From positions 1-64,000 of the IMG/VR virus record IMGVR_UViG_3300020057_000001: a stretch of DNA of 64,000 bases; one strand, 5' to 3'. This DNA comes from a virus. Below the pieces are notes generated by a model, which ran no database searches, was not told where the DNA came from, and saw only the letters and a program-made list of their open reading frames with translations. Made by a program: the position numbers and the translations under genes. Below, one piece after another: positions 1 to 23,115 of this stretch. Position 1 is the first letter of the stretch; every line of letters begins with the position of its first letter.

Positions 1-293
1 GAGCGAAAAGCCTGAGAATTGTAAGCTTTGGGGTCGGAATGCGGAAGTAAAAACTTAACTACTTTTAAGTGACCATTCTCAGCAGCCGAGCGAAAAGCCT
101 GAGAATTGTAAGCTTTGGGGTCGGAATAAGGGAGCAAAAACTTAACTATTTCTAAGTGCGCTTTGTCAGCAGCCAAGCGAAAAGCCTCGGAATGGGTAGC
201 TTTATCGTTAACTAGACCTGTTTCCACCAATCGCTTTACCGTATCTAGATCACTACGTCTGACTGCGTCCCAAAATTCAGCTCGATAATCCAT
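1..293 (-). CDS. Ankyrin-repeat protein (3' end outside window)
   Basis: Manual translation: MDYRAEFWDAVRRSDLDTVKRLVETGLVNDKATHSEAFRLAADKAHLEIVKFLLPYSDPKAYNSQ...; not in ORF track because truncated. Confidence 0.9.
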   Translation of the reverse strand, partial: MDYRAEFWDAVRRSDLDTVKRLVETGLVNDKATHSEAFRLAADKAHLEIVKFLLPYSDPKAYNSQAFRSAAENGHLKVVKFLLPHSDPKAYNSQAFR

Positions 294-300
294 AATCACC

Positions 301-762
301 TCAGATAAATTGTCTTACCACTTCAGGGTCGGAATGCGGTATTAAAAACTTAACTATTTCTAAGTGACCTTTACTAGCAGCCCAGCGAAGAGCCTGAGAA
401 CCTAGGACTGTAGGGTCGGAGTACGGTAGTAAAAACTTAACCATTTCTAAGTGACCGTTCAAAGCAGCAAAGCAAAAAGCCTCAGATTCACACGCTCGAG
501 GGTCGGAGTATGGTAGCAAAAACTTAACTATTTCTAAGTCCCCATTCTCAGCAGCCCAGCAAAAAGCTTGAGAGCCCTTAGCTTCAGGGTCGGAAAGCGG
601 GAACAAAAACTTAACTATTTCTAAGTGCCCGTTCAAAGCAGCAAAGCGAAAAGCCTGAGAATCATAAACTTTAGGGTCAACTAGACCTGCTTCCAGCAAT
701 CGTTGCACTGTATCTAAATCGCCACTTTTGGCTGCTTGTAAAAATTCAGCTTGATAATTCAT
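301..762 (-). CDS. Ankyrin-repeat protein, 4 internal repeats (153 aa from ATG)
   Basis: AAxxGHLEIVKFLL motifs; ATG 7 nt after the upstream stop, with GAGGTG SD. Confidence 0.92.
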   Translation of the reverse strand: MNYQAEFLQAAKSGDLDTVQRLLEAGLVDPKVYDSQAFRFAALNGHLEIVKFLFPLSDPEAKGSQAFCWAAENGDLEIVKFLLPYSDPRACESEAFCFAALNGHLEMVKFLLPYSDPTVLGSQALRWAASKGHLEIVKFLIPHSDPEVVRQFI

Positions 763-769
763 GGTCACC

Positions 770-1144
770 TCAGATAAATCGTCTTACAACTTCAGGGTCG
801 GTATGGGGTAGTAAAAGCTTAACTACTTCTAAGTGACCATGCTTAGCCGCCCAACGAAAAGCCTCAGAATTTTTAGCTTTAGGGTTAGAGTGCGGAAGTA
901 AAAGCTTAACTATTTCTAAATGACCGTTCGCAGCGGCCCAACGCAAAGCCTGAGAATCTAGGGCTGTAGGGTCAGAGTGCGGAAGTAAAAACTTAACCAT
1001 TTCTAAGTGACCGTTCAAAGCGGCAAAGCAAAAAGCCTCAGAATCTGAGCCTTGAGGGTTGACTAAACATGTTTCCACCAATCGCTTTACTGTATCTAAA
1101 TCCCCACTTTCGACTGCGTCCCAAAATTCAGCTCGATAATTCAT
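770..1144 (-). CDS. Ankyrin-repeat protein, 3 internal repeats (124 aa)
   Basis: Same architecture. Confidence 0.92.
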   Translation of the reverse strand: MNYRAEFWDAVESGDLDTVKRLVETCLVNPQGSDSEAFCFAALNGHLEMVKFLLPHSDPTALDSQALRWAAANGHLEIVKLLLPHSNPKAKNSEAFRWAAKHGHLEVVKLLLPHTDPEVVRRFI

Positions 1145-1151
1145 GGCAACC

Positions 1152-1715
1152 TCAGATAAATTGTCTTACCACTTCAGGGTCGGTATGGGGTAGCAAAAAC
1201 TTAACTATTTCTAAGTGCCCATTCTCAGCAGCAAAGCAAAAAGCCTCAGAATATTTAGCTTTAGGGTCGGAGTGCGGGAGTAAAAACTTAACTATTTCTA
1301 AGTGACCCTTCCAGGCAGCCCAGCAAAAAGCCCGAGAATCTAGGGCTGTAGGGTCGGAGTGCGGGAGTAAAAACTTAACCATTTCTAAATGACCGTTCAA
1401 AGCAGCCAAGCGCAAAGCCTCAGAATCTGAGCCTTTAGGGTCGGAGTGCGGGAGTAAAAACTTAACTACGTTTAAATGACCATTCTCAGCAGCCCAGCAA
1501 AAAGCCTGAGAATCTAGGACCGTAGGGTCGGAGTACGGGAGTAAAAACTGTACTACGTCTAAGTGCCCGTTCAAAGCAGCCCAGCGAAAAGCCTGAAAAT
1601 CATAAACTTCAGGGTCAACTAAACCTGCTTCCACCAATCGTTGCACTGTATCTAAATCGCCACTTTTGACTGCGTCCCAAAATTCAGCGTCACAAAATGC
1701 AGCTTGATACTTCAT
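1152..1715 (-). CDS. Ankyrin-repeat protein, 5 internal repeats; 5-aa insertion in N-cap
   Basis: Same architecture; N-cap YQAAFCDAEFWDA. Confidence 0.92.
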   Translation of the reverse strand: MKYQAAFCDAEFWDAVKSGDLDTVQRLVEAGLVDPEVYDFQAFRWAALNGHLDVVQFLLPYSDPTVLDSQAFCWAAENGHLNVVKFLLPHSDPKGSDSEALRLAALNGHLEMVKFLLPHSDPTALDSRAFCWAAWKGHLEIVKFLLPHSDPKAKYSEAFCFAAENGHLEIVKFLLPHTDPEVVRQFI

Positions 1716-1722
1716 GGTCACC

Positions 1723-2445
1723 TCAGATAAATTGTCTTACCACTTCAGGGTCGGTATGGGGTAGCAAAAACTTAACTATTTCTAAGTGACCCTTCGCAGC
1801 AGCCGAGCGAAAAGCATCAGAATCTGAGCCTTTAGGGTCGGAGTAGGGTAGCAAAAACTTAACTACTTCTAAACGCCCGCTACGGGCAGCCGAGCGCAAA
1901 GCATCAGATTCACACGCCCGAGGGTCGGAGTACGGTACTAAAAACTGTACTACGTCTAAATGACCATTCTCAGCAGCCCAGCGCAAAGCCTCCGAATCGT
2001 AAGCTTTGGGGTCGGAGTAAGGTACTAAAAACTGTACTATTTCTAAGTGCCCATTCTCAGCAGCCAAGCGAAAAGCCGCGGAACCTTGAGCTTTAGGGTC
2101 GGAATGCGGTAGCAAAAACTTAACTACTTCTAAGCGACCGCACCCCGCAGCACGGCGAAAAGCCTGAGAATCGTAAGCTGTAGGGTCGGAATGTGGTAGT
2201 AAAACCTGTACTATTTCTAAATAACCATGGGAAGCAGCCCAACGCAATGCCTGAGATTCTTGCGCTGTAGGGTCGGAATGCGGTAGTAAAAACTGTACTA
2301 TTTCTAAATAACCATGGGAAGCCGCCGACCGCAAAGCCTCGGAATGGGTAGCTTTATCGTTAACTAAACATGTTTCCACCAATCGCTTTACTGTGTCTAG
2401 ATCGCCACTTCTGACTGCTTGTAAAAAACCATGCTGATAATCCAT
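1723..2445 (-). CDS. Ankyrin-repeat protein, 7 internal repeats (240 aa)
   Basis: Same architecture. Confidence 0.92.
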   Translation of the reverse strand: MDYQHGFLQAVRSGDLDTVKRLVETCLVNDKATHSEALRSAASHGYLEIVQFLLPHSDPTAQESQALRWAASHGYLEIVQVLLPHSDPTAYDSQAFRRAAGCGRLEVVKFLLPHSDPKAQGSAAFRLAAENGHLEIVQFLVPYSDPKAYDSEALRWAAENGHLDVVQFLVPYSDPRACESDALRSAARSGRLEVVKFLLPYSDPKGSDSDAFRSAAAKGHLEIVKFLLPHTDPEVVRQFI

Positions 2446-2452
2446 GCGCACC

Positions 2453-2914
2453 TCAGATAAATTGTCTTACCACTTCAGGGTCGGTATGGGGTAGCAAAAA
2501 CTTAACTATTTCTAAGTCCCCATTCTCCGCAGCAAAGCGAAAAGCCTGAGAACCTTTAGCTTTAGGGTCAGAGTATGGTCGCAAAAACTTAACTACTTCT
2601 AAATGACCATTACCGGCAGCAAAGCGAAAAGCCTGAGAATTGTTAGCTTTAGGGTCAGAGTATGGTAGCAAAAACTTAACTACTTCTAAATGACCATTAC
2701 CGGCAGCACGTCGAAAAGCCTCAAAATTGTAAGCTTCAGGGTCGGAATGCGGTAGTAAAAACTTAACCATTTCTAAGTGACCGTGCAAAGCGGCAAAGCA
2801 CAAAGCCTGAGAATGGTGAGCTTTATCGTTAACTAAACATGTTTCCACCAATCGCTTTACTGTGTCTAAATCGCCACTTTCGACTGCGTGCCAAAATTCA
2901 TCTTGATAATCCAT
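2453..2914 (-). CDS. Ankyrin-repeat protein, 4 internal repeats
   Basis: Same architecture. Confidence 0.92.
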   Translation of the reverse strand: MDYQDEFWHAVESGDLDTVKRLVETCLVNDKAHHSQALCFAALHGHLEMVKFLLPHSDPEAYNFEAFRRAAGNGHLEVVKFLLPYSDPKANNSQAFRFAAGNGHLEVVKFLRPYSDPKAKGSQAFRFAAENGDLEIVKFLLPHTDPEVVRQFI

Positions 2915-2921
2915 GGCAACC

Positions 2922-3383
2922 TCAGATAAATTGTCTTACCGCTTTAGGGTCAGAGTACGGTAGTAAAAACTTAACTACTTCTAAATACCCGTTCAAAGCA
3001 GCCCAGCGAAAAGCCTCCGAATCGTAAGCTTTGGGGTCGGAGTATGGTAGTAAAAACTTAACTACTTCTAAATGACCATTCTCAGCAGCAAAGCGAAAAG
3101 CCTGAGAATTGTTAGCTTTAGGGTCGGAGTATGGTAGTAAAAACTTAACTACTTCTAAATGACCATTCTCAGCAGCACGGCGAAAAGCCTGAGAACCATA
3201 AACTTTAGGGTCGGAGTAAGGTATTAAAAACTGTACTACTTCTAAGTGCCCGTTCAAAGCAGCAAAGCGCAAAGCCTCAGAATTGTTAGCTGTAGGGTCA
3301 ACGAGCCTTGTTTCCACCAATCGCTTTACTGTATCTAAATCGCCACTTTCGACTGTGTACCAAAATTCGTCTTGATAATTCAT
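2922..3383 (-). CDS. Ankyrin-repeat protein, 4 internal repeats
   Basis: Same architecture. Confidence 0.92.
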   Translation of the reverse strand: MNYQDEFWYTVESGDLDTVKRLVETRLVDPTANNSEALRFAALNGHLEVVQFLIPYSDPKVYGSQAFRRAAENGHLEVVKFLLPYSDPKANNSQAFRFAAENGHLEVVKFLLPYSDPKAYDSEAFRWAALNGYLEVVKFLLPYSDPKAVRQFI

Positions 3384-3390
3384 GGTCACC

Positions 3391-3939
3391 TCAGATAAAT
3401 TGTCTTACCGCTTTAGGGTCAGAGTGCGGAAGTAAAAATTTAACTACTTCTAAATGACCATTTTCAGCAGCAAAGCGAAAAGCCTCAGAATCTTGAGCTT
3501 TAGGGTCGGAGTAAGGTACTAAAAACTTAACTACTTCTAAATACCCGTTCAAAGCAGCCCAACGAAAAGCCTGAAAACTATAAGCTTTAGGGTCGGAGTA
3601 TGGTAGTAAAAACTTAACTACTTCTAAATGACCATGAGCAGCGGCCCAACGCAAAGCCCCAGAATAGTGAGCTTCAGGGTCGGAGTACGGTAGTAAAAAC
3701 TTAACTACTTCTAAGTGCCCGTTCTCAGCAGCCCAACGAAAAGCCTGAGAGCCCTCAGCTTTAGGGTCAAAGTAAGGTACTAAAAACTGTACTATTTCTA
3801 AGTGCCCATTCTCAGCAGCCCTCTGAAACGCGCGAAATTCATCTACAATGTGGTCAACTAAACCTGCTTCCACCAATCGCTTTACCGTAGCCAAATCGCC
3901 ACTTTCGACTGCTTGTGAAAAATCAGCTTGATAATCCAT
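3391..3939 (-). CDS. Ankyrin-repeat protein, 5 internal repeats (first gene of left array)
   Basis: Same architecture; SD-like AAGGTTG upstream. Confidence 0.92.
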   Translation of the reverse strand: MDYQADFSQAVESGDLATVKRLVEAGLVDHIVDEFRAFQRAAENGHLEIVQFLVPYFDPKAEGSQAFRWAAENGHLEVVKFLLPYSDPEAHYSGALRWAAAHGHLEVVKFLLPYSDPKAYSFQAFRWAALNGYLEVVKFLVPYSDPKAQDSEAFRFAAENGHLEVVKFLLPHSDPKAVRQFI

Positions 3940-3972
3940 AAATCTACAACCTTTCGACTTCTTTTTCCACGC

Positions 3973-4431
3973 TCATCTCGTCTCCAAGTAAATCAATCTA
4001 CCAAGAATTACGACTACGGGCGCAAGCCAAAGCAGCAACTGAAGCACGGAATCCGGGCGTAACGCCTCTGTAAACAAATCCCAAAAACCAATGGACTGGA
4101 GCCCGAGGGACACCAAAAAAGAAACGGCGATGAGGCAAGGTATCCAAAATAGTTTGTTATCTTTTTTCACCACCTTTTCCGAAAACCGCTGCGCAACTAC
4201 AATTGTTTTGTTTTCCCAGCCTACCACCTCCGCGCACCAAAATATTTCTCCGTCCCAACACACGTGCGTTCGCTTAGTGCCATCGACTAGTTTTAAGAAT
4301 TCCGGTGGTTCATCAGACCATCGCACCTGAAGCGTGTTACCTACGCGCCGGTAGACGCCCTTACCTTCGCCAAATCCTATCCAGCTATTTACAAACTCAC
4401 TCATCTTCACTCTCTTTCGGTATCCGCTCAT
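3973..4431 (-). CDS. Hypothetical membrane protein
   Basis: Two C-terminal hydrophobic segments; co-directional with neighbours. Confidence 0.6.
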   Translation of the reverse strand: MSGYRKRVKMSEFVNSWIGFGEGKGVYRRVGNTLQVRWSDEPPEFLKLVDGTKRTHVCWDGEIFWCAEVVGWENKTIVVAQRFSEKVVKKDNKLFWIPCLIAVSFLVSLGLQSIGFWDLFTEALRPDSVLQLLLWLAPVVVILGRLIYLETR

Positions 4432-4452
4432 CTTGAATGAATTCGGTGCAAT

Positions 4453-5700
4453 TCATTTTTCGCATTTCCCGCTACTCAGCGGGATTTTAAAATCAAGACT
4501 AAAGTCGCTCGTCGTTGCGGTTAACATTTCTTTCTGACAAATCGCCCTTGAAATCTCAACTATTCGATTTGCCAACTTCCATGCGAGTAAGGGGGGAACA
4601 GCATTTCCAATTGCTTTGTATGATGAAGAGGCGCTTGTGACCCCTACGAATTCAAAGTCATCAGGGAATGTTTGTAGTCGCGCACATTCACGCACAGTGA
4701 GTCGTCGTTGCTGAAATTTTGTCTCTTCCAATTTGTTGTTAATTCCACCATTTTGAGCGGACAAACGACGAAATTCAATGTTTCCATGATGTTCACTTCT
4801 TATTGTTGGAGCAGGCCTATCAATTCTGACTTCAATTTGACCTTGAGAACCATTGTCTAAATATCTACATTTAGAAAAGTGCTGTTGAGATTGATCATCC
4901 GATTGATTAGGTTCATCTAGTCCACTGAATGCATATTTTGTCGTCGGGACTATTCCTTGATTTCCAAGGTGGGACTTATCGGGAAAAAACGATGGCAATT
5001 GTTTTAAAAACACCGCTCTTTCGAAATTTTTTGCGATATCATCGATTCTTACGCCGATTACAATCAGCCTTTCCCGTTTCTGTGGGATACCATATTCGGC
5101 ACAATTGACCAGTTGCCACTGGACTGAATAGCCCAAGTCTTTCAGTCGATTCTTCAAGTCTGAAAAGACGGTACCATTCTCTGCCGAAAGGAGACCTTTC
5201 ACATTCTCAGCAATTATAAATCTTGGCTGGAGCTGCTCAATTGCTTTTAACATATATATATAGAGTGACCCCCTAGACACTTTGCTTGAAGTGTTTATTA
5301 GTCCTGTGTGACTACGATGAGATAACGTGCCTCTTCTTGCCCCAGCAAAACTGAAATCTTGGCAAGGAAATCCTCCCGATACAAGGAATGGCCGCTCGAA
5401 AGACTTTAGCACTTGAGACTCAACTATCTCTACAATACTTTGCGACTCGTACTGCCCTAGCCTACTCCTTTTATTAAAGTATGCCTTATGAATATCCATA
5501 GCTGAAGTACAAATATCATTGATAAATACCGTTTCTATCCCCGTGGATTCAAGCCATATTTTTCTTGTTTTTCCGGTTCTCTTTAAATCCAGATAGCTAC
5601 TAAACGTCTCAAATCCGCCCTCGATCCCCAGATCCATTCCACCACAGCCTGAAAAAAAAGAAAAATGTCTCATTGTGCCTCCATTTGTTTCTTTAGTCAT
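4453..5700 (-). CDS. dcm: DNA (cytosine-5)-methyltransferase, orphan
   Basis: Motifs I FSGCGG, IV GFPCQDFS, VI ENV, VIII QKRER, IX RLTVRECARLQTFPD, X GNAV. Confidence 0.93.
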   Translation of the reverse strand: MTKETNGGTMRHFSFFSGCGGMDLGIEGGFETFSSYLDLKRTGKTRKIWLESTGIETVFINDICTSAMDIHKAYFNKRSRLGQYESQSIVEIVESQVLKSFERPFLVSGGFPCQDFSFAGARRGTLSHRSHTGLINTSSKVSRGSLYIYMLKAIEQLQPRFIIAENVKGLLSAENGTVFSDLKNRLKDLGYSVQWQLVNCAEYGIPQKRERLIVIGVRIDDIAKNFERAVFLKQLPSFFPDKSHLGNQGIVPTTKYAFSGLDEPNQSDDQSQQHFSKCRYLDNGSQGQIEVRIDRPAPTIRSEHHGNIEFRRLSAQNGGINNKLEETKFQQRRLTVRECARLQTFPDDFEFVGVTSASSSYKAIGNAVPPLLAWKLANRIVEISRAICQKEMLTATTSDFSLDFKIPLSSGKCEK

Positions 5701-6043
5701 TATCTTCCACCCAGATTTCTTTCGTTAGCCTATTACCGCTTTCATCGAGTGCTTCAGGCGCATCAAGGTCTATTCTATTGCACCAATAAAAGCTAGCCAA
5801 GTTTAAGTAACAATAATACGTTATCCTTCTCATATTCGGCTTCGCGGGTTGATCGATAGCATCCACTAGAGAGCACGGGTAATCCATGCTGGGCCGCGAC
5901 ATGCGGTGACCTGAGGGCCATTCTTGAAAATATACGACACCATTTTCGCGACGATAATGCCAGACCCATCCAAAAGTATCTCTAAAGCTCTGCATATTAT
6001 ACGGCTTCACTCGCTCTGCAAATTGGCTCCAAGTTTCTTTCAT
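5693..6043 (-). CDS. Hypothetical protein
   Basis: GAGAGG SD; overlaps the MTase start. Confidence 0.6.
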   Translation of the reverse strand: MKETWSQFAERVKPYNMQSFRDTFGWVWHYRRENGVVYFQEWPSGHRMSRPSMDYPCSLVDAIDQPAKPNMRRITYYCYLNLASFYWCNRIDLDAPEALDESGNRLTKEIWVEDND

Positions 6044-6100
6044 CCTACACCTCTCATATGTTGTACAACGTCAGGTCACGCCTACCGTAGCAAAATTAAA

Positions 6101-6271
6101 CTATTTTGGGATTCTTCTTGCTTTCGCCACAGCCCACGTGACGCAGTGAGCTTCGGTGTGGAACATAGCGTCAGACACTTGTTGCCCGTCTTTGAACAAG
6201 CGCACAGTATAGCAGTCGAATCCATGCAATCGAACCGCTTCAATCAAATAACAAAATCCTGGAAAATTCAT
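6101..6271 (-). CDS. Small hypothetical protein (56 aa, MNFPGFCYLIEAV...)
   Basis: Manual ORF with AGGGG SD, just downstream of a sigma28-like promoter. Confidence 0.55.
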   Translation of the reverse strand: MNFPGFCYLIEAVRLHGFDCYTVRLFKDGQQVSDAMFHTEAHCVTWAVAKARRIPK

Positions 6272-6337
6272 AAAATCCCCTATTGTGTGCCAGAGACGCG
6301 GATGGGCATTTGTGGCCCGCGCCTGCCCTTAACCAAT

Positions 6338-6364
6338 GTATCGCCAGCCGACACCAAAACTTTA
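6338..6364 (-). promoter_or_regulatory. sigma28/FliA-like promoter heading the leftward MTase/ankyrin operon
   Basis: TAAA-GTTTTGGTGTCGGCT(15)-GGCGATAC. Confidence 0.7.
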
Positions 6365-6442
6365 GCCTCATTGTAGCTTTTTTGCACAAAATAGGCTACT
6401 CTTTACTCAATTATAAAATTAACCCATCAGGGGGAAATCAAC

Positions 6443-9400
6443 GTGGCTGCACCAATTTCTGTTAAGTCCAAAGACCAACTTCTAGGCGACATGGTTCGTA
6501 CTATCAGCAATCAGACTGATATTACAGACTTTAAGGCAGGAGGCGGCCTTGTCTCTCTTATGGAAGCTATTGCCACTCGGCAGTTTCAGTTCCAAACAGA
6601 GATTCTAAAGATCATCGAAACTTCAGACGTAGACAACCTCGTCGGCTCACGGCTAGACGACCTTGCGGCTTCGATCCTCTTACCCAACAGTACGGGAGGT
6701 GTCGGGCGCAAACCCGCTCTTCCCGCATCAGGGTCGGTCACTATTGGGTCAAACTTTAAAAAAGTAGCAACTCGCTTCTACCAAGGTAAACCTCCCGCAT
6801 TTGCTGGCAGCACAATCTTGTACCTTCAAGACGCATCAGCATTCTCTAACCCCTCGTCTTCTCCTAAAGTCTACTTGGGACGCAACACGCTGGACAACTT
6901 TGAAGGCCCGATTCAATACACTGCTTTAACGAATAACGGGTCGTTCTGGACACTTACGCTCTCGTCTCCTTTGACGAAGAACCATTCGTACAGCGACGAG
7001 ATTGTTTTAGCCCAAGGTGGTAACCGAATCGTACCTGCCAGTACGTCTGTAATAATACAGGCAAAAGACGGACAAGCCCAAATTAATTTCACAACAACCA
7101 CGTCCGTGTCCTTGTTTGATGGCGAAGCCGAAACAAGTGCCTCCGTTGGTTGCGCCTTATCAGGAACGATCGGCAACGCCGCTACAAATGCTATTAATTC
7201 TTTTGTCACGGTTCCTTTCACGGGTGCCACTGTCGCGAACTCGACAGCGTTTGTCGACGGAAGAGACACAGAATCAGACGCAGACCTCCGCCAACGAATC
7301 AAAGACTACCCCGCTACCCTATCCCGTGGAACAGAAGCTTCTATACGCGCAGCCCTTGACGGCCTTGTTGACCCTGTTTCGAACAAAGCGATAACCTCGG
7401 CGTCCCTGATCCGCCCTACTACCTCTGGGGACCCTACCACTATTTATATCGATGATGGCTCGGGACTAGAGCCGACCTTTGGCTATCAGGACTACGAGTT
7501 GCTCTTAGCAAAAGCTTCTGGTCAAGAACAAAGCTTTCGTACAGCCCAAGTACCGGTTACGCCGGTGCTAGTTACAGGTAGTGTCACGGCACCCTTTGAC
7601 TTGAGTGCGGCTTCCACAATAACCATTCTTGTAGATGGCGTCACTATTGCCCTCCAGGTCAACACCGCCAATTACTCAGACATTCGTGCCGCCACTGCGT
7701 ATGAAGTTGTCCGTGACCTTAACACTCAAAGCGCTCTTTTAGCTTGGCGCACGGTGAACAGTGGCAAGCAAGTCACTGTATTCGATGCCAATAACGATGC
7801 CGAAGAGATCGAGGTCACCTCGGGTGTGCTTCAGCAAGCTTTGGGCCTTCCGACAATCACAACACGTAATATTTATCTTTACGTCAACGGTGTTTTAAAT
7901 TCCTTCAAAGGCAAGACAGCAGCCGTAACGACCGACACTTACCCGTGGGTTGGTATGACAAATCCTATTAACTCCTGCCAAGTGTTCATTGACCAAGTGA
8001 CGACCCCCGTAACTTTTTCAATCACCGACGCCGACTTCTCCCCTAACACAGTGGCGAATGCTACACTTACCCAGTGGGCTGCGGTCTTAAGAAAGAAAAT
8101 CCCTGGTGTCTCTATTGTAGTGGTAGAGAACAGACTGCTCATTGCCTCAAACCTTTTACGCTCACCTGATTCGCGTATCCAGGTGGCGGGCGGTCTCGTC
8201 GGGTCAGGCAAAATGTTTGCCGTAGCACAATCAAGCACCGGTGCCACTCGCGATTATGAGTTTAACCGCTTTACGGGCGACATCCGCTTTGTCGACAAGG
8301 TCCCTACAAGTAGCGTCGTTGAGATTGCTTCTACCAAGACACGAGCGTTTGTCTCTTCGCAAGTGGCTTCGACTGGTACGTTCGACTTGACCCCAAGTTC
8401 TCAATTCGGTGTGGGACAGATGTTGGTTGTCACTGACTCCGCAACTACCATTCGCGCCATGGGTATAGCCACTTCTTTAACCGCCACCAATCTTTCAAAC
8501 AATCTGTGTCGACTGACGGATGCTTCAGCCTCGCTTTTCGCTAACGTACAAGCGGGCGACTACATGTACTTCGTTAACAATGTTCTTGCTAACGCTACAC
8601 TAGCTCGCACATCCGACGGTCTCTATTTAGTACGCGCACAGACCGCAACGACAATAACCGTCGAAGCGTCTGACGCGCAGATTACGGCTTTCACCGTGGG
8701 TGGTATCGTTTACTCTACTGGTATGATTCAAGCTTTCTCTTGTGAAAAGGCTCCCGAAATTGCGGTGATTAAGTCCTCAGTTACGGGACAGACGTCTATT
8801 GCGCAGCTTGCAAAAGCCCTTAACGACCAAGCCATCGCCTTTGCAGTCGACACTGTCGGCGGACAACAGCTTCGGTTGCGGACAAGAGCTTTCAGCCCAA
8901 CGTCGACGGTATCCGTTGTAGGTTTAGTCGGACCCCTTGCGTCTGTCTTTACCCTAACAGTAGCTGAACCTATCACCCTCCAGAGCCATGTAGGGTTCTC
9001 GTCTTCACCTTTCTCGGACATGGGGCTTCCGGTTGTCACTAGCGTAATAACCGATAGGGCGACGGCTTTTTTAAAGATTACTCCTGACCTCACAGACGTG
9101 ACAACCAACACGGAACCCTTTGACGTCAACCCCAACCCCGTCATAGTGCAAGACGCTTTGGTTACGAGTTACCCCTTAGGCTTTGGAGAACTTTTCTTGG
9201 CAGGGAAAGCGGGCGGTCAGCGCTTTCGTACATACAATACTACGGGCACAGCACCTTTTACAGGTTTTGCTCGAGGCTCCGGTGGTGTACGCTTTCCTCA
9301 AACTCAGAACACTTCAGCAGGCGCAAACTACTACTCAAACTACGGCTTAAGACTTGAAGATCTCCCTATTACAAACGTAGACAAATTTGTGGCAACGTTT

Positions 9401-13249: not shown

Positions 13250-13254
13250 ACCAA

Positions 13255-13476
13255 ATGGCATTGGAAAAAAAGACAGCAGACGGTAGCTTAGAATTCCTAG
13301 TGTCAGACTGGGCACAGAACATCTCGCTGAATAGCCCTTCAATCGCAGCTTTGAACACTTTTCACAAGCAGACAGAACGCATAGCCGACCTGCAAAAGCA
13401 AGCGGCACTCACCCCTGGTGAAACTGTAGAACTTACACTTCTTCTCAAAAATAAATGGAACATCGCGAATGACTAA
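13255..13476 (+). CDS. Small hypothetical protein in baseplate operon
   Basis: Fills the gap and overlaps the next start. Confidence 0.55.
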   Translation: MALEKKTADGSLEFLVSDWAQNISLNSPSIAALNTFHKQTERIADLQKQAALTPGETVELTLLLKNKWNIAND

Positions 13477-16321: not shown

Positions 16322-16362
16322 GCCCTGCGGCCTAAAATAGACATAAGAACAGCGGAGACACC

Positions 16363-18948
16363 ATGGCGAATCTTTCAAGCGTAAACTGGATACCGAGTCA
16401 GCGAGTAGACGTCAGTGACATGCGGGCTATTGAGTCCTACGTCGCTAGTGACCTTCGCGCCCTTGTCAACATGATCACTGGCCCTAGCGAACCCTTCGTG
16501 GTTAGAGGCTTTGAGGTTATCGCAGCAGGGAACGCCCAGATCTCTCTTTCCCTCGCTAATGCTATGGTTTTTACGCCCGCAGGCGGTGTAGGGTCTTTCT
16601 ACCTAGGTACCGCAGCTCAAGCCGACCTCGTTGTCCCCTTGGTAAAAGGCGCAACTAACTATATCCAACTCGTATTCAAACGCGAATCTCAAACCTCAGT
16701 TACTCGCGGTATCTGGGATCAGACTTCTCCCACAGGCGACTCCCCAGCGGGAACCCAATTTACTGCGTCTGTGAAAATCCAAAACGTAATGGTCCCCGAC
16801 GAAGTCAGCCTCGTCTCACAAGCAGGTCGCATCGAAGGCGCGGCGTCAATTGCAATTGTAGACGTTGCTTCAGACGGAACAGTCTCAAACTTTAGAGACG
16901 ACCGCACTCTTTTGTTTCGTCAAGGTCGACCAACCGATCCCACGTACCAATTCCCCTGGGCAACCACAAGACAAGAGCCAGTTCAAAGTACAACACTCGC
17001 TTCAAACCTTGCCGACACCAACACAGCGTCTGTCTATTACGCACGAGACGCAGCTACTGGTAAAGTTGTCAACGACAAAGGGATTACTAACCTTAAAGAT
17101 TTCTTTGACGCCCTTATGACTTCGCTAGGCGAGATCAGAGGCTCGTCGGTATGGTACGCAGGTTCCGGTTCCTCTGTTTATTTGAACAACCTTAACTTGA
17201 ACACAGCGTACATGGATTCCGAAGCAGGGCACCACTGGGAGCCTAAAGCTAATGCGTTCATTCAATGGTCGAAGCCCGACGCAGCTACCGGTGTACCTGA
17301 CTTTAAACTCCGGGCTTCCGCCACTGACACCATCTCTTGGGGTCTCAACTACGGAAACGTAAGGTGGGAACTCGGCGGCGCTTACACTTCAGACGTGTCG
17401 ACTAACGGCTCACTAAGCCGCAGGTCTTTTAGCGGAACCGCTGCGGATAACTTATTCGTTTCAGGGGTAATTGCTAGCGGCTTAAACGTTTACCTTGCGC
17501 TTGAAAGAGACACCACTCCCGCAGGCGCATCAACCAATACTGTGACGTGGTCGCCATCTGTTCTCCCGTCGTTTTCAGCAGCCGCTCTTTGGGACGTAGC
17601 TTACACGGTCTCGGGTATCAAAGGCGACTTTACCGGTATCGCTATTGGTGACTGGGTAAAAAAGGCAACAGACGGGCAGTGGGCTTACTACAAAGTACGC
17701 CGCTTACTCGTTGATAACGGAACATCTTCGGGTGTGCAGGTAGGAGCCACGGGCTCTTCCGCAAGCCCTACGATTATCGCAGGCGACGATGGCGCAGTAG
17801 CAAACAACAACGTGGTTGCCCTAGAGCTTGACCGCTCCCTTGTCCCTGCTGGGACAGTAGTCCAACAGCTTTTTTGGTTTCGTTCTAAATATGCGAGCGG
17901 TGACGTCATTGTGGAAACACTTGCTCAACGCAACCAAGCCATTCCACCTTACCGGTCTACGTCGTACTACTGGCTAGGCTACGCCTACGACAACGCCGGT
18001 ACTTTCACAGGCCGCTACTTCTCCCTTCGCAATTACGGCACCATGTCCCCAGGTGAAGAAGTACAGTCGCTCGATGATTCGGACCAAGCGATTGACTACA
18101 CCGCAGGCAACTCCGAGTTTGCGATTGACTTCCCAAATAATATTGCTTATAGCGCCTCGACGCTTACCGGCACTTCATTTCTCGCAAACATTGCAAGACG
18201 CCTTACCAACAACCTTATCCCGAATGCTGGCGGCGCAGCCAACAAAGCCTCAATCAATTATCAAATTGTCGCAGGGGGATCTCTTGGTATCAGTGTAGGT
18301 CAAGAGCTGTGGGTAAACCTACAGGATTCTTACTCTGCTAGCGTAATCACGTTGATAGCCGGAGTCGTGACAGCCACAGCGAACACGTACGAAGTGCGTT
18401 CAGCCACAGCAGCACCCATTAGAAGCCTAACCAACCGCAACGTGTTTTGCTTAGGCCGTGTCACAACGGACGGTTATTTTCAGTTTATTGACGGCACGAA
18501 GGTCGCTTCTTCGGGCTTGTTCGACAGAAGCCCAAGGCTTATAAACAACGTGCTTGTAGGCGGTAACGCAGTTGTCCCCTTGACGGCTACAAACACCCTG
18601 ACGCTTGGATCGGCTACAGGGGTGACTAGGCTCTCGGGCGGCCAAATTATTAAAAGACGGTTCACGAACACACTTAGCACTCAACTCACCCTTGCGGACT
18701 ATCTCATATCCGTAGACACAAACACTATCGCAGCAGTGGGGATTACCACGATTCTCCCCAACACGTCGACATTGGTTGCGGGTCAGGTATTTTGTATAAA
18801 AGACTCTACTGGAAAAGCGGACCTATACCCAATCGACGTTGTCGGTTTTGCGGGCGAGCTTATCGATGGCGAGGCTTTTCAGTCCATTAATTCTAATTAT
18901 GAACAAATGACTGTCGTGTGGACTGGAAGTTATTACGAAATAGTTTAA
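16363..18948 (+). CDS. Putative tail fibre/baseplate-associated protein
   Basis: N-terminal QRVDVSD..VVRGFEV head; C-terminal ISVDT...TILP...GQVFCIKD..G..IDG fibre-tip-type module. Confidence 0.6.
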   Translation: MANLSSVNWIPSQRVDVSDMRAIESYVASDLRALVNMITGPSEPFVVRGFEVIAAGNAQISLSLANAMVFTPAGGVGSFYLGTAAQADLVVPLVKGATNYIQLVFKRESQTSVTRGIWDQTSPTGDSPAGTQFTASVKIQNVMVPDEVSLVSQAGRIEGAASIAIVDVASDGTVSNFRDDRTLLFRQGRPTDPTYQFPWATTRQEPVQSTTLASNLADTNTASVYYARDAATGKVVNDKGITNLKDFFDALMTSLGEIRGSSVWYAGSGSSVYLNNLNLNTAYMDSEAGHHWEPKANAFIQWSKPDAATGVPDFKLRASATDTISWGLNYGNVRWELGGAYTSDVSTNGSLSRRSFSGTAADNLFVSGVIASGLNVYLALERDTTPAGASTNTVTWSPSVLPSFSAAALWDVAYTVSGIKGDFTGIAIGDWVKKATDGQWAYYKVRRLLVDNGTSSGVQVGATGSSASPTIIAGDDGAVANNNVVALELDRSLVPAGTVVQQLFWFRSKYASGDVIVETLAQRNQAIPPYRSTSYYWLGYAYDNAGTFTGRYFSLRNYGTMSPGEEVQSLDDSDQAIDYTAGNSEFAIDFPNNIAYSASTLTGTSFLANIARRLTNNLIPNAGGAANKASINYQIVAGGSLGISVGQELWVNLQDSYSASVITLIAGVVTATANTYEVRSATAAPIRSLTNRNVFCLGRVTTDGYFQFIDGTKVASSGLFDRSPRLINNVLVGGNAVVPLTATNTLTLGSATGVTRLSGGQIIKRRFTNTLSTQLTLADYLISVDTNTIAAVGITTILPNTSTLVAGQVFCIKDSTGKADLYPIDVVGFAGELIDGEAFQSINSNYEQMTVVWTGSYYEIV

Positions 18949-18972
18949 AGTCGTGTAGGGTTGTTCCGATAG
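18946..18972 (+). promoter_or_regulatory. sigma28/FliA-like promoter directly upstream of the right ankyrin array
   Basis: TAAA-GTCGTGTAGGGTTGT(15)-TCCGATAG. Confidence 0.7.
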
Positions 18973-18988
18973 TACATTTGAGGTGCGC

Positions 18989-19711
18989 ATGGATTATCAA
19001 TATGTATTTTTACTAGCCGCCAAAAATGGCGATTTAGGCACAGTAAAGCGATTGGTGGAAGCAGGTCTAGTTGACCCTAAAGATAGTGATGCTCTCTTGT
19101 TGCGCTTGGCTGCCAGTAACGGTCACTTAGAAGTAGTTAAGTTTTTACTCCCGCACTCCGACCCTAAAGCTAACGCTACTGAGGCTTTTCGCCGTGCTGC
19201 GGCTTACGGTCATTTAGAAGTAGTTAAGTTTTTGCTACCGCACTCCAACACTAAAGTTCAAAATTCTCAGGCTTTTCGCTTTGCTGCGGCTCACGGTCAT
19301 TTAGAAGTAGTTAAGTTTTTACTACCGTACTCTGACCCTAAAGCTAACTATTCTGAGGCTTTTCGCTTGGCTGCGGCTCACGGTCGTTTAGAAGTAGTAC
19401 AGTTTTTGCTACCCTACTCTGACCCTAAAGCTAACGCTTCTACGGCTTTGCGTTGGGCTGCTAAGAATGGTCGTTTAGAAGTAGTACAGTTTTTGCAACC
19501 ACACTCCGACCCTAAAGCTCAAAATTCTGAGGCTTTTCGTTGGGCGGCTTCGTACGGTTACCTAGGCGTAGTTAAGTTTTTACTACCGTACTCCGACCCT
19601 AAAGCTGACAATTCTCAGGCTTTTCGCTCGGCTGCTGCGAAGGGGCACTTAGAAATAGTTAAGTTTTTGCTACCCCATACCGACCCTGAAGTGGTAAGAC
19701 AATTTATCTGA
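18989..19711 (+). CDS. Ankyrin-repeat protein, 7 internal repeats
   Basis: GAGGTG SD; repeat motifs. Confidence 0.92.
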   Translation: MDYQYVFLLAAKNGDLGTVKRLVEAGLVDPKDSDALLLRLAASNGHLEVVKFLLPHSDPKANATEAFRRAAAYGHLEVVKFLLPHSNTKVQNSQAFRFAAAHGHLEVVKFLLPYSDPKANYSEAFRLAAAHGRLEVVQFLLPYSDPKANASTALRWAAKNGRLEVVQFLQPHSDPKAQNSEAFRWAASYGYLGVVKFLLPYSDPKADNSQAFRSAAAKGHLEIVKFLLPHTDPEVVRQFI

Positions 19712-19719
19712 GGTGAAAC

Positions 19720-20304
19720 ATGGAATACTTATTAGCGCTTGCTCTCGCTCCGATACTGTTCGCGGGTGGGTTTGCAGTCGTTATGGCGTGGCTGGGTAAG
19801 TTTGAAACGCCAGCGCGAGGAAAGGGAAGGCCCAAAAGCAGCCTGGGGGATTACCCAAACATATCTGTGCGCGCAGCTATGCGAGGTGCCTTAGATACGG
19901 TAAAGCGATTTGTGGGAACATATCGATTTGACCTAAGGTCCGATAACGGTTCCGCTTTTCGTATGGCTGCTGACAAAGGTCATTTAGAAATAGTTAAGTT
20001 TTTACTACCATACTCCGACCCTCCAGCCCTAGATCATGCTTTTCGCATGGCTGCCTGGACCGGTCATTTAGAAATAGTTAAGTTTTTACTACCACATTCC
20101 GACCCTGAAGCTCACTATTCTGAGGCTTTTTGTTGGGCTGCTGAGAATGGTCACTTAGAAATAGTTAAGCTTTTGCTACCGTACTCTGACCCTAAAGCTC
20201 AAGATTCTCAGGCTTTTCGCTTTGCTGCTGAAAATGGTCACTTAGAAGTAGTTAAGTTTTTACTACCGCACTCCGACCCTGAAGTGGTAAGAGAATTTAT
20301 CTGA
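19720..20304 (+). CDS. Ankyrin-repeat protein with N-terminal membrane anchor, 4 internal repeats
   Basis: MEYLLALALAPILFAGGFAVVMAWLG hydrophobic helix before a degenerate N-cap. Confidence 0.88.
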   Translation: MEYLLALALAPILFAGGFAVVMAWLGKFETPARGKGRPKSSLGDYPNISVRAAMRGALDTVKRFVGTYRFDLRSDNGSAFRMAADKGHLEIVKFLLPYSDPPALDHAFRMAAWTGHLEIVKFLLPHSDPEAHYSEAFCWAAENGHLEIVKLLLPYSDPKAQDSQAFRFAAENGHLEVVKFLLPHSDPEVVREFI

Positions 20305-20311
20305 GGTGTAT

Positions 20312-20773
20312 ATGTATTATCGAGATGTATTTTTGCGAGCAGCCAACAGTGGCGATTTAGGTACAGTAAAGCTGTCGGTGGAAGCAGGTCTAGTTGACGT
20401 GAAGGCTCATGCTTCTGAGGCGTTGCGTTGGGCTGCTGAAAATGGTCATTTAGAAGTAGTTAAGTTTTTGCTACCATACGCCGACCCACAAGCGTGTGAA
20501 TCTGAGGCTTTTCGTTGGGCTGCTGCGCATGGTCATTTAGAAGTAGTTAAGTTTTTGCTACTTTACTCCGACCCTACAGCTAATAATTCTCAGGCTTTTC
20601 GCTTTGCTGCGGCTCACGGTCACTTAGAGATAGTTAAGTTTTTGTTACCGTATGCCGACCCTAAAGCTAACGCTTCTGAGGCTTTTCGTTGGGCTGCTAA
20701 GAATGGTCATTTAGAAACAGCTAAGTTTTTACTTCCGCACTCTGACCCTATAGTCGTAAGACAATTTATCTGA
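20312..20773 (+). CDS. Ankyrin-repeat protein, 4 internal repeats
   Basis: Same architecture. Confidence 0.92.
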   Translation: MYYRDVFLRAANSGDLGTVKLSVEAGLVDVKAHASEALRWAAENGHLEVVKFLLPYADPQACESEAFRWAAAHGHLEVVKFLLLYSDPTANNSQAFRFAAAHGHLEIVKFLLPYADPKANASEAFRWAAKNGHLETAKFLLPHSDPIVVRQFI

Positions 20774-20780
20774 GGTGCAT

Positions 20781-21329
20781 ATGGATCATCAAGCTGAATT
20801 TTTGATAGCCGCCAAAAGTGGCGATTTAGACACAGTAAAGCGATTGCTGGAAGCAGGTCTAGTTGACCCTAAAGCTAGCGAGGCTCTCTCGTTGCGCTGC
20901 GCTGCTGTGTACGGTCACTTAGAAGTAGTTAAGGTTTTACTCCCGCACTCCGACCCTAAAGCTAACGCTACTGAGGCTTTTCGCGCGGCTACTTTGTACG
21001 ACCAGTTAGAAATAGTTAAGTTTTTACTACCATACGTCGACCCTACAGAGCAAGAATCTCGGGCATTGCGTTGGGCTGCTTCCCATGGTTATTTAGAAAT
21101 AGTTAAGTTTTTACTACCGCACGCTAACCCTAAAGCTAAAGATTCTCAGGCTTTTTGCTCGGCTGCCAGTCACGGTCATTTAGAAGTAGTTAAGTTTTTG
21201 CTACCATACTCCGACCCGAAAGCGCAAGAATCGGGGGCTTTTCGCTCGGCTGCTGAGCAGGGGCATTTAGAAGTAATGCAGTTTTTACTACCGCATTCCG
21301 ACCCTAAAATTGTAAGGCAATTTATCTGA
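20781..21329 (+). CDS. Ankyrin-repeat protein, 5 internal repeats
   Basis: Same architecture. Confidence 0.92.
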   Translation: MDHQAEFLIAAKSGDLDTVKRLLEAGLVDPKASEALSLRCAAVYGHLEVVKVLLPHSDPKANATEAFRAATLYDQLEIVKFLLPYVDPTEQESRALRWAASHGYLEIVKFLLPHANPKAKDSQAFCSAASHGHLEVVKFLLPYSDPKAQESGAFRSAAEQGHLEVMQFLLPHSDPKIVRQFI

Positions 21330-21336
21330 GGTGCGT

Positions 21337-21795
21337 ATGGATTATCAAGATGAATTTTTACAAGCAGTCCAAAGTGACGATTTAGATACAGTAAAGCAAT
21401 TGGTGGAAGCAGGTCTAGTTGACCCGCAAATTTACGGCCCTGAGGCTTTTCGTTGGGCTGCTTGGTACGGTCATTTAGAAGTAGTTAAATTTTTACTTCA
21501 GCACTCCGACCCTACAGCCCTAGATCATGCTTTTCGCATGGCTGCCTGGACCGGTCATTTAGAAATAGTTAAGTTTTTACTACCGCATTCCGACCCCAAA
21601 GCTCACTATTCTGAGGCTTTTCGTTGGGCTGCTGAGAATGGTCACTTAGAAATAGTTAAGCTTTTGCTACCGTGCTCTGACCCTAAAGCGCAAGAATCGG
21701 GGGCTTTTTGCTTGGCTGCCCGTAACGGTCACTTAGAAATAGTTAAGTTTTTACTACCGCATTCCGACCCTGAAGTGGTAAGACAATTTATCTGA
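21337..21795 (+). CDS. Ankyrin-repeat protein, 4 internal repeats (one of 28 aa)
   Basis: Same architecture. Confidence 0.92.
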   Translation: MDYQDEFLQAVQSDDLDTVKQLVEAGLVDPQIYGPEAFRWAAWYGHLEVVKFLLQHSDPTALDHAFRMAAWTGHLEIVKFLLPHSDPKAHYSEAFRWAAENGHLEIVKLLLPCSDPKAQESGAFCLAARNGHLEIVKFLLPHSDPEVVRQFI

Positions 21796-21802
21796 GGTGC
21801 AC

Positions 21803-22264
21803 ATGGATTATCAAGATGAATTTTTACAAGCAGTCCAAAGTGGCGATTTAGATACAGTAAAGCAATTGGTGGAAGCAGGTCTAGTTGACCACACGCTCGA
21901 TGGATTTGGCGCTTTTCGCGTGGCTGCTTCGTATGGGTATTTAGAAACAGCTAAGTTTTTACTGCCATTTTCTGATCCTAAAGCTAAAGAATCTGCTCCT
22001 ATTCGCTTGGCGGCTTCGTACGGTTACCTAGACGTAGTTAAGTTTTTACTACCGCATTCCGACCCTACAGCTAACAATTCTCAGGCTTTTCGCTTTGCTG
22101 CGGCTCACGGCCATTTAGAAATAGTTAAGTTTTTACTACCGCACTCCGACCCTAAAGCTAACTATTCTGATGCTTTTCGCTTGGCTGCTTTGAACGGTCA
22201 TTTAGAAGTAGTTAAGTTTTTACTACCCCATACCGACCCTAAAGTTGTAAGACAATTTATCTGA
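21803..22264 (+). CDS. Ankyrin-repeat protein, 4 internal repeats
   Basis: Same architecture. Confidence 0.92.
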   Translation: MDYQDEFLQAVQSGDLDTVKQLVEAGLVDHTLDGFGAFRVAASYGYLETAKFLLPFSDPKAKESAPIRLAASYGYLDVVKFLLPHSDPTANNSQAFRFAAAHGHLEIVKFLLPHSDPKANYSDAFRLAALNGHLEVVKFLLPHTDPKVVRQFI

Positions 22265-22271
22265 GGTGCAT

Positions 22272-22733
22272 ATGAATTATCAAGCTGAATTTTTACAAGC
22301 CGCCAAAAGTGGCGATTTAGGCACAGTAAAGCGATTGGTGGAAGCAGGTCTAGGTGACCCCAAGCTTCACGAATCTCACGCTTTTCGCCGTGCTGCGGCT
22401 CACGGTCATTTAGAAGTAGTTAAGTTTTTACTACCTTACTCTGACCCTAAAGTTTACGAATCTGCGGCATTGCGTTGGGCTGCTGCGAACGGGTATTTAG
22501 AAGTAATGCGGTTTTTAATACTTTACTCCGACCCTGAAGCTAACAATTCTCAGGCTTTGCGTTGGGCCGCTGCGAACGGTCATTTAGAAATAGTTAAGCT
22601 TTTACTACCCCATACCGACCCTAAAGTTTACGGATCTGCGGCATTGCGTTGGGCTGCTGCGAACGGGTACTTAGAAGTAGTTAAGTTTTTACTACCTTAC
22701 TCCGACCCTAAAGTTGTAAGACAATTTATCTGA
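22272..22733 (+). CDS. Ankyrin-repeat protein, 4 internal repeats
   Basis: Same architecture. Confidence 0.92.
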   Translation: MNYQAEFLQAAKSGDLGTVKRLVEAGLGDPKLHESHAFRRAAAHGHLEVVKFLLPYSDPKVYESAALRWAAANGYLEVMRFLILYSDPEANNSQALRWAAANGHLEIVKLLLPHTDPKVYGSAALRWAAANGYLEVVKFLLPYSDPKVVRQFI

Positions 22734-22740
22734 GGTGCAC

Positions 22741-23115
22741 ATGGATTATCAAGCTGAATTTTTACAAGCAGTCAAAAGTGGCGATTTAGATACAGTACGG
22801 CGGTTGGTGGAAACATATCGATTTGACCCAGGGTCCGATAACTGTTACGCTTTTCGCTTGGCTGCTGACAAAGCGCACTTAGCAATAGTTAAGTTTTTGC
22901 TCCCTTATTCCGACCCCAAAGCTTACAATTCTGAGGCTTTTCGTTGGGCTGCTGACAAAGGTCATTTAGAAATAGTTAAGTTTTTACTACCATACTCCGA
23001 CCCTAAAGCTTACGGCTCTGATGCTTTTCGCTTGGCTGCTTTGAACGGTCATTTAGAAGTAGTTAAGTTTTTACTACCCCATACCGACCCTAAAGTTGTA
23101 AGACAATTCATTTGA
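22741..23115 (+). CDS. Ankyrin-repeat protein, 3 internal repeats (last gene of array)
   Basis: Same architecture; the conserved junction is absent after its stop. Confidence 0.92.
   Translation: MDYQAEFLQAVKSGDLDTVRRLVETYRFDPGSDNCYAFRLAADKAHLAIVKFLLPYSDPKAYNSEAFRWAADKGHLEIVKFLLPYSDPKAYGSDAFRLAALNGHLEVVKFLLPHTDPKVVRQFI

Follow-up and report, generated by a model that had tools for sequence, protein, structure and literature searches.

Mosaic genes in two inverted phage ankyrin arrays point to ectopic recombination among old, diverged repeats

How did the many binding faces encoded by a phage's ankyrin genes arise? The 160-kb genome of an uncultured phage (IMG/VR record IMGVR_UViG_3300020057_000001) carries 17 small ankyrin-repeat genes in two rows of opposite orientation (Table 1). 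A 15-kb segment with baseplate, tail-fibre and methylase genes lies between the arrays, and tail-fibre and baseplate genes adjoin them. A sequence-only reading of positions 1 to 64,000 of the record (64 kb, hereafter the window) had described recent mosaicism within and between the arrays, and had attributed the diversity to shuffling of short modules rather than to independent point mutation. The mosaicism is borne out by 17 significant tracts, by AU and PHI tests, by the phases at which tracts end and by variant contigs. There is good support for the genes being true mosaics, formed by recombination both inside each array and between the two. In our assessment, variants that arose earlier by point mutation on the ankyrin binding face are most likely brought into new combinations by ectopic homologous recombination, through gene conversion as well as unequal crossover.

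Table 1. Ankyrin genes, shared tracts and natural variants, in window coordinates unless marked otherwise.
Feature	Position	Strand	Details
Minus-strand ankyrin array	1..3939	-	g2-g8 and 5' part of g1; ORFs and Pfam Ank_2/Ank/Ank_4 matches
g1, 5' part	1-293	-	remainder of g1, plus g0, at genome 159,016-160,001
g2	301-762	-	ankyrin ORF
g3	770-1144	-	ankyrin ORF
g4	1152-1715	-	ankyrin ORF
g5	1723-2445	-	ankyrin ORF
g6	2453-2914	-	ankyrin ORF
g7	2922-3383	-	ankyrin ORF
g8	3391-3939	-	ankyrin ORF
Plus-strand ankyrin array	18989..23115	+	g9-g16; ORFs and Pfam matches
g9	18989-19711	+	ankyrin ORF
g10	19720-20304	+	ankyrin ORF
g11	20312-20773	+	ankyrin ORF
g12	20781-21329	+	ankyrin ORF
g13	21337-21795	+	ankyrin ORF
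g14	21803-22264	+	ankyrin ORF
g15	22272-22733	+	ankyrin ORF
g16	22741-23115	+	ankyrin ORF
Between-array tract	91-185 / 22849-22943	- / +	g1 unit 1 vs g16; 93/95 nt; flanks 64%, 81%
Between-array tract	1718-1815 / 19619-19716	- / +	g5 C-cap vs g9; 97/98 nt; upstream flank 66%
Within-array tract	20012-20304 / 21503-21795	+	g10 3' half vs g13; 272/293 nt; upstream flank 64%
Within-array tract	22112-22257 / 22963-23108	+	g14 3' end vs g16; 140/146 nt
Within-array tract	19014-19192 / 20806-20984	+	g9 5' end vs g12; 164/179 nt
Within-array tract	19262-19374 / 22076-22188	+	g9 middle vs g14; 108/113 nt
Within-array tract	21337-21424 / 21803-21890	+	g13 N-cap vs g14; 87/88 nt
Within-array tract	2558-2698 / 3027-3167	-	g6 vs g7; 132/141 nt
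Repeat absent from L030	21673..21759	+	87 nt, exactly one g13 unit; in-frame
L031 cluster	1194..1238	-	11 differences; 5' part of g4 C-cap to g3 C-cap sequence
L031 second cluster	290-297		g2/g1 junction and g1 start to g3 form

Each gene encodes 3 to 9 repeat units, 29 residues long (87 nt; 28 residues in two units), between an N-cap and a C-cap. None of the 17 genes is broken, and each has a start and a ribosome-binding site of its own; the plus-array genes are joined by TGAGGTGnnnATG, in which the stop codon overlaps the ribosome-binding site. Only one of the 17 proteins has an N-terminal hydrophobic segment. Pfam Ank_2 matches them with E-values of 4.8e-26 to 7.4e-54, and Ank, Ank_3, Ank_4 and Ank_5 also exceed their cut-offs. 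The AF2 model of g11 has paired helices (pLDDT 88.9, pTM 0.83), and its best Foldseek matches are ankyrins and DARPins at TM 0.70-0.79, as expected of a solenoid fold. The unit falls short of the canonical 33-residue ankyrin period: relative to DARPins, one plus three residues are absent in loop and turn. The same short 29-residue variant is present in metagenome proteins P0001-P0005.

Variation is concentrated at six hypervariable positions per unit, on the canonical ankyrin binding face. Mean identity between units is 77% at the nucleotide and 66% at the amino acid level, framework dS is about 0.48, and the hypervariable codons are saturated. This indicates that the raw variation is old mutational divergence, reassorted by recombination, and that the shared tracts are much younger than the ankyrin family. 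To deny independent point mutation a role was thus an overstatement, and "recent" fits a few tracts at 0-3% divergence and the population variants, not the family as a whole. With its sites saturated, the dN/dS of 0.88 at the six hypervariable positions speaks neither for nor against positive selection. Between units the framework DNA keeps about 77-85% identity, and exact runs in it reach 60-90 nt.

Inside the tracts identity is about 92-99%, compared with 60-80% in the flanks, and the drop is abrupt. For a chance null we shuffled the entries of every alignment column across units 80 times, which gave family-wise maximum scores of 74 for internal, 79 for C-cap and 71 for N-cap tracts. At the 95% family-wise level 17 tracts are significant, and 11 beat all permutations; of the 17, three join the arrays, 10 join genes of one array, and four lie within a gene. 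Both between-array tracts that had been read from the sequence are real and beat the null, the g1/g16 tract scoring 86 (null maximum 74) and the g5/g9 tract 84 (null maximum 79). This null destroys tree-like relatedness too, so it shows linkage, not recombination by itself, and the C-cap is so conserved that the null itself yields matches of 60-70 nt.

The layout of the tracts is that of a patchwork. Tracts end at many unit phases, many of them within the framework. The 5' end of g9 resembles g12, its middle g14 and its C-cap g5, making it a three-way mosaic, and g13 outside its N-cap is nearest to g10 and g2. The g10/g13 tract contains a common one-codon deletion, in a unit ending ALDH; this short unit and the next one, which the sequence-only reading had reported as shared, match at 154/171 nt. 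The N-cap variant TYRFD..SDN, likewise reported for g10 and g16, is indeed common to them, at 84/108 nt with a near-identical core. The g14/g16 tract is one repeat out of register and holds a 92-nt exact match, and g1 has perfect 87-nt tandem copies.

Could one tree nevertheless account for both gene ends? The AU test rejects it: the 3'-end tree is rejected by the 5'-end data (delta lnL 108, p 1e-53), and the 5'-end and concatenated trees are both rejected by the 3'-end data (p 9e-5). Five of six data sets gave p 0.0005-0.0095 in PHI breakpoint tests; with a 50-nt window, PHI on the six 153-aa genes was not significant (p 0.18). N-cap and C-cap distances are uncorrelated (Mantel r = -0.07), and the nearest relatives of a gene's modules sit in different genes. 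Identity between adjacent sub-repeat segments is also nearly uncorrelated (r -0.04 to 0.18), which we dropped as evidence of shuffling since old, star-like divergence gives the same result.

The shuffling of short modules held up in part. Identical 6-aa turns occur in nine inter-gene pairs where 4.1 are expected, and eight of the nine common turns are nucleotide-identical, synonymous sites included, against an expectation of 4.2 (Poisson-binomial tail ~0.009). Short turn and helix modules show only a modest excess of recurrence over chance, and a restricted residue alphabet explains part of it; the EN helix motif is found in 21 of 79 units, and two-residue helix motifs recur by composition alone.

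Two short contigs from JGI sample 3300015360, L030 and L031, provide contig-level evidence of natural variants. Apart from lacking one unit, L030 matches g12-g15 with no mismatches over 1,458 nt, including the g13/g14 tract. Its junction is novel, with a 6-nt overlap within conserved framework, and the shortened gene stays intact at 123 aa (P0010). L030 also differs at four single positions in g15; these were considered as a conversion tract, but no paralog fits over the span, and they are ordinary strain SNPs. In L031 two clusters of differences carry g3-like sequence; at either end L031 runs out in a contig tip, where assembly is least reliable.

Comparison with orthologous arrays found no usable relative in cultured phages (tblastn), IMG/VR or metagenome DNA. 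With the terminase and an ankyrin gene as queries, tblastn on cultured phages returned nothing beyond Myxococcus phage Mx1 at 29% identity and, at 32%, a Wolbachia WO protein; IMG/VR scans gave only N-terminal tail-fibre matches at 27-30% and generic ankyrins at 34-52%, with none for the terminase. In metagenome DNA a gene-junction 21-mer had no match, and a framework 20-mer had 31 single matches, none in an ankyrin. Exact matching of the ATG-start proteins mostly drew a blank, probably owing to a GTG start further upstream in the called genes. No sequence relative above about 61% identity was found, and a tRNA scan of the genome found no tRNAs and hence no host clue from them.

Which enzymes could carry out the exchanges? 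The earlier statement that the window holds no recombinase or reverse transcriptase holds for the families tested, and the search that it proposed elsewhere in the genome recovered a UvsX/RecA-like recombinase at 88,013-89,164, outside the window (phrog_97 E 2.4e-30; Pfam RecA 37.7 bits against a cut-off of 27; PDB matches to RecA and T4 UvsX 3io5). Profile searches of the 160-kb genome found no reverse transcriptase (RVT_1), RecT or ERF, and no integrase or invertase (no Phage_integrase, tyrosine, or Resolvase, serine, match). The 17 genes form a paralogous family of small, binder-like proteins. Their conserved framework DNA, with its high identity and long exact runs, would allow misaligned pairing between paralogs. 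Unequal crossover or slippage would add or drop genes or entire 87-nt units, and short-tract gene conversion (roughly 60-300 nt) would copy pieces within one array and between the inverted arrays. Older point mutation would supply the variation, and recombination new combinations of it. We infer that the UvsX-like recombinase or host RecA performs the exchanges, for example during recombination-dependent replication, and that the diversity is selected because the ankyrin proteins bind variable host targets.

The same genome also encodes a second, HEAT-like family of repeat proteins, with exact repeats of 778, 141 and 131 nt. Exact repeats in this second, unrelated family suggest that the process is general and not peculiar to the ankyrin genes.

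One alternative is plain duplication and divergence without exchange, the tracts being remnants of recent unit or gene duplication and the motifs a product of convergent selection on a small residue alphabet. The neighbours g6/g7 and g7/g8 are alike over most of their length, two-residue helix motifs and some 6-aa turns occur at near-chance rates, and C-cap matches of 60-70 nt arise in the null, all as this account would predict. However, it fits poorly with the strongly conflicting trees from the two gene ends, with PHI, with three-way mosaic genes, with tracts that begin and end inside units and out of register, and with common turns identical at synonymous sites. Moreover, the between-array tracts are inverted and 19-23 kb apart, and tandem duplication cannot yield them. 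We consider duplication without exchange highly improbable. We would give as little credence to an assembly artefact, in which the mosaics are chimeric short-read graph paths or collapsed repeats. Such arrays do invite artefacts: in an exact-repeat scan several genes share identical stretches of 60-92 nt, and the contig's 70-nt "terminal repeat" and its ends fall within a run of perfect 87-nt units, which makes the copy number provisional for at least one gene (g1). Yet the tracts fall below 100% identity, as expected of distinct loci and not of the same reads used twice; the independent contig L030 reproduces g12-g15 with the g13/g14 tract, and its junction overlap is too short for a k-mer path switch.

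A dedicated, programmed diversifier (a diversity-generating retroelement, a shufflon or invertase, or antigenic variation by donor-to-expression-site cassettes) would account for variation focused on the binding face and for mutually inverted arrays. It appears very unlikely to us, given that neither a reverse transcriptase nor tyrosine or serine recombinases were found in the genome and that the variable codons are not of the adenine-based AAY types (position 4 encodes W/F/L/S/R). With every gene intact and bearing its own expression signals, the family is not divided into silent and expressed members, and the unrelated HEAT-like family shows the same kind of exchange.

Ectopic recombination, the reading we favor, has clear precedents. 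Embedded tracts, incongruent trees and population polymorphism (the two short contigs) place the arrays among multigene families shaped by gene conversion and unequal crossover, a process already known in fungal NLR repeats and other families and found here in a phage. Fungal NLR repeats (Podospora HNWD WD40; ANK, TPR) undergo concerted evolution and diversifying selection (PMC2873952, PMC4986451). Like the phage arrays, they combine superstructure-forming repeats, a conserved framework and variable binding-face residues with repeat-number polymorphism and exchange within and between family members. In contrast, their high internal conservation, defined as at least 85% amino acid identity between repeats over at least 100 residues (PMC4986451), occurs in one long gene, whereas the phage units average 66% identity across 17 short stand-alone genes without a NOD or effector domain; only units 2-4 of g1 reach the NLR level. 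Accessory ankyrin genes are also carried by the "Ankyphages" of sponge symbionts (bioRxiv 10.1101/608950) and Wolbachia phage WO (PMC3173496), where they are proposed to bind targets outside the phage replication machinery. Those phages have one or few such genes, some with signal peptides, instead of 17 paralogs in two arrays, and the 29-residue repeat here is unusually short.

Designed ankyrin repeat proteins (DARPins, such as PDB 1mj0 and 4qfv) have the same fold at 30-37% identity and a similarly consensus-like framework (GHLE[IV]VK.LL). Hypervariable positions 26, 27 and 29 align with the DARPin turn. Positions 7 and 8 align with DARPin positions 13 and 14, reportedly library positions (Binz et al. 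2003). The phage proteins, by comparison, are of natural origin, their repeat is four residues shorter, and their diversity comes from mutation and recombination instead of synthesis. Diversity-generating retroelements (BPP-1 Mtd) and invertible tail-fibre segments (Mu Gin, P1 Cin) likewise vary a phage binding surface, but their defining enzymes were not found here, and the mechanism is probably general homologous recombination.

Ordinary recombination can thus reshuffle the variety within a large, consensus-like set of ankyrin binders in a phage, and this is seen both in a fixed genome and as variants within one natural sample. The case offers a natural, tractable parallel to engineered DARPin libraries and fungal immune-receptor repeats, and raises the possibility that large phages extend their range of host interactions with no mutagenic machinery dedicated to the task. 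Such arrays also break assemblies: the "terminal repeat" behind this genome's complete call is the repeat unit itself, so long reads are needed for copy number and gene order at such loci. It is tempting to see the inverted arrays as a self-renewing, UvsX-driven binder library that lets the phage population keep pace with variable host targets, for instance defence or surface proteins. We regard this as speculative and rather unlikely; if true, it would be a reverse-transcriptase-free counterpart of diversity-generating retroelements. The HEAT-like family may serve the same purpose, and crossovers between the arrays may invert the 15-kb segment with its baseplate, tail-fibre and methylase genes.

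The mosaic ankyrin arrays of this tailed phage are real, and they add a new case of an evolutionary mechanism already known, in a carrier that is unusual. Concerted evolution and repeat shuffling have been described for WD-, ANK- and TPR-type repeats of fungal NLRs (PMC2873952, PMC4986451), and the process here matches them, but the phage arrays are less homogenised and their repeats are spread across many small genes. Ankyrin genes are already known in phages, as single or few copies (10.1101/608950; PMC3173496).

The phage has 17 intact ankyrin genes, which we number g0 to g8 on the minus strand and g9 to g16 on the plus strand, in two arrays of inverted relative orientation. Each gene consists of a 36-residue N-cap and 3 to 9 units, the last of which is a C-cap that closes with VRQFI. 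At 29 residues (28 in two cases), the units fall four short of the canonical 33. TGAGGTGnnnATG links the genes, with the stop codon overlapping the ribosome-binding site; gene junctions of the phage are of the Shine-Dalgarno type. Pfam ankyrin profiles match the array proteins strongly, and the nearest structures to an AF2 model of g11 (pLDDT 88.9) are ankyrins and DARPins. Amino acid variation is centred on unit positions 4, 7, 8, 26, 27 and 29, where identity is 21%, versus 77% in the conserved framework. These positions align with the turn and with the positions of the first helix that DARPin libraries randomise. Only g10 carries about 42 extra N-terminal residues, including a hydrophobic, transmembrane-like stretch. 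Within the family, this member may be anchored in a membrane or exported. A sigma-28-like motif, TAAAGTCG-N11-TCCGATAG, lies just 5' of the first plus-array gene.

Locations of the features discussed in the text
Feature	Location or source	Strand	Size	Content
Minus-strand ankyrin array	genome 159,016-160,001 + 1-3,939	-		9 genes
Inter-array segment	window 3940-18988		15 kb	small membrane protein, C5 DNA methylase, three large baseplate/tail-fibre-like genes
Sigma-28-like motif	window 18946-18988			
Plus-strand ankyrin array	18,989-23,115	+		8 genes
g10, N-terminal part	window 19720-19950	+		about 42 extra residues with hydrophobic stretch
Large terminase	window 25284-27746		820 aa	
UvsX/RecA-like ORF	genome 88,013-89,164	-	383 aa	
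Exact direct repeat	genome 122,485-123,262 and 129,855-130,632		778 nt	outside the window; second paralogous repeat-protein family
L030	JGI sample 3300015360		1,642 bp	contig encoding 123-aa g13 variant
L031	JGI sample 3300015360		983 bp	contig equal to genome 270-1252 bar clustered differences at both ends

Both tracts of near-identity cited by the sequence-only reading, at 93/95 nt (g1/g16) and 97/98 nt (g5/g9), are exactly as claimed, and the one-codon-shorter unit and the N-cap variant are indeed shared. Pairs of internal units average 76.7% identity (sd 4.8%), with a few outliers at 92-100%. When all gene pairs were scanned along diagonals, dozens of tracts emerged that span 60-300 nt with 88-100% identity, flanked by sequence in which identity drops to about 60-80%. 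As a null, each alignment column was permuted among units (80 permutations), a generous null given how strongly the C-cap is conserved. Seventeen tracts exceeded the 95% family-wise threshold; 11, including both cited tracts, exceeded every permutation. Ten of the 17 join different genes of one array, four lie within one gene, and three (g1/g16, g5/g9 and g4/g9) connect the arrays. A crossover between the arrays would flip the segment that separates them, which encodes a 2,268-aa baseplate-wedge-like protein (phrog_6 match) and two tail-fibre-like proteins, while the hybrid ankyrin genes stayed in frame.

Could duplication alone account for the tracts? A single tree for all repeats, which the sequence-only reading had named as a finding that would refute mosaicism, fails, as the two gene ends give conflicting trees: by maximum likelihood, the tree of the 3' ends is rejected by data from the 5' ends (AU p 1e-53), and the 3'-end data reject both the 5'-end and the concatenated tree (AU p 9e-5). 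Pairwise distances of N-caps and C-caps are uncorrelated (Mantel r -0.07), as are those of penultimate units and C-caps. The nearest relative of each gene shifts module by module; for g9 it is g12 at the 5' end, g14 in the middle and g5 at the C-cap, and for g13 it is g14, then g10, then g2. In our own implementation, PHI was significant in five of six data sets (p 0.0005-0.0095) and not in the sixth (50-nt window). Tracts end at many unit phases and some are at least one unit out of register, so exchange is not confined to whole repeats. With framework dS at about 0.48, tracts that diverge by 0-3% must be far younger than the family.

The sequence-only reading attributed the diversity to combinatorial shuffling of short modules. 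Identical 6-aa turns occur in 9 inter-gene pairs versus 4.1 expected, 8 of them nucleotide-identical versus 4.2 expected (tail about 0.009), and they adjoin different helix motifs. Variants are clearly reassorted by recombination, but the short-module evidence is weaker; two-residue helix motifs recur from composition alone. The exclusion of point mutation by that reading goes too far, as the variants themselves must still arise by mutation.

Among natural sequences, a homology search found a 123-aa protein that is identical to g13 except for one missing unit, on contig L030. This contig matches the genome over 722 nt with 0 mismatches, skips exactly 87 nt, and continues for about 740 nt more without a mismatch. 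The two registers have only 6 nt in common at the junction, within the framework, and a k-mer path switch cannot yield it. In contig L031, g3 forms stand in place of the 5' portion of the g4 C-cap, and likewise at the g2/g1 junction and the start of g1, a pattern that fits conversion as well as unequal crossover; these differences sit at contig tips, so we weigh L031 as supportive only.

Across the whole genome, we found no match to RVT_1, RecT, ERF, Phage_integrase or Resolvase. There is a UvsX/RecA-like recombinase, with matches to Pfam RecA (37.7 bits, above the cut-off), phrog_97 (E 2.4e-30), and RecA and T4 UvsX in the PDB. In a second repeat-protein family, at genome 120-134 kb, there are exact repeats of 778 nt and of 125-141 nt, among them 141 and 131 nt, which speaks for recombination as a general process and against a device specific to the ankyrin genes.

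The IMG/VR virus record is 160,071 bp, of which the window is the first 64,000 bases. Its 70-nt "direct terminal repeat" falls within a series of three or more perfect 87-nt g1 units (window 1-180, genome 159,810-160,071); the contig break thus fell in a tandem repeat, and the "DTR, 100% complete" call depends on it. Because g1 is in frame across the junction, the circular genome probably closes there, and three is a lower bound for the number of perfect g1 units.

The phage also encodes a Clp-type protease, a primase-like gene and a large terminase (phrog_5653 match). The terminase looks split by an intein-like insert: about 100 residues separate a Cys-led block from an HNC motif, and the protein's matches to Mx1 terminase fall in two pieces. 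The phage has no close relatives among cultured phages or in IMG/VR. Clusters of ankyrin genes with a short period are present on several other IMG/VR contigs of uncultured viruses, in some cases at the end of the contig: L008, L016-L021 and L012, L013, L020 and L024 have 2-4 or more small genes with 30-31-residue periods, and in L012, L013, L020 and L024 (about 81.7 kb) clusters lie at both ends, as in this phage. The 29-residue unit also occurs, with an LLP.SDPKA..S turn, in metagenome proteins P0001-P0005, P0009, P0012, P0016 and P0077, where its fusion partner is either a conserved domain of some 120 residues at the N-terminus or a conserved C-terminal tail.
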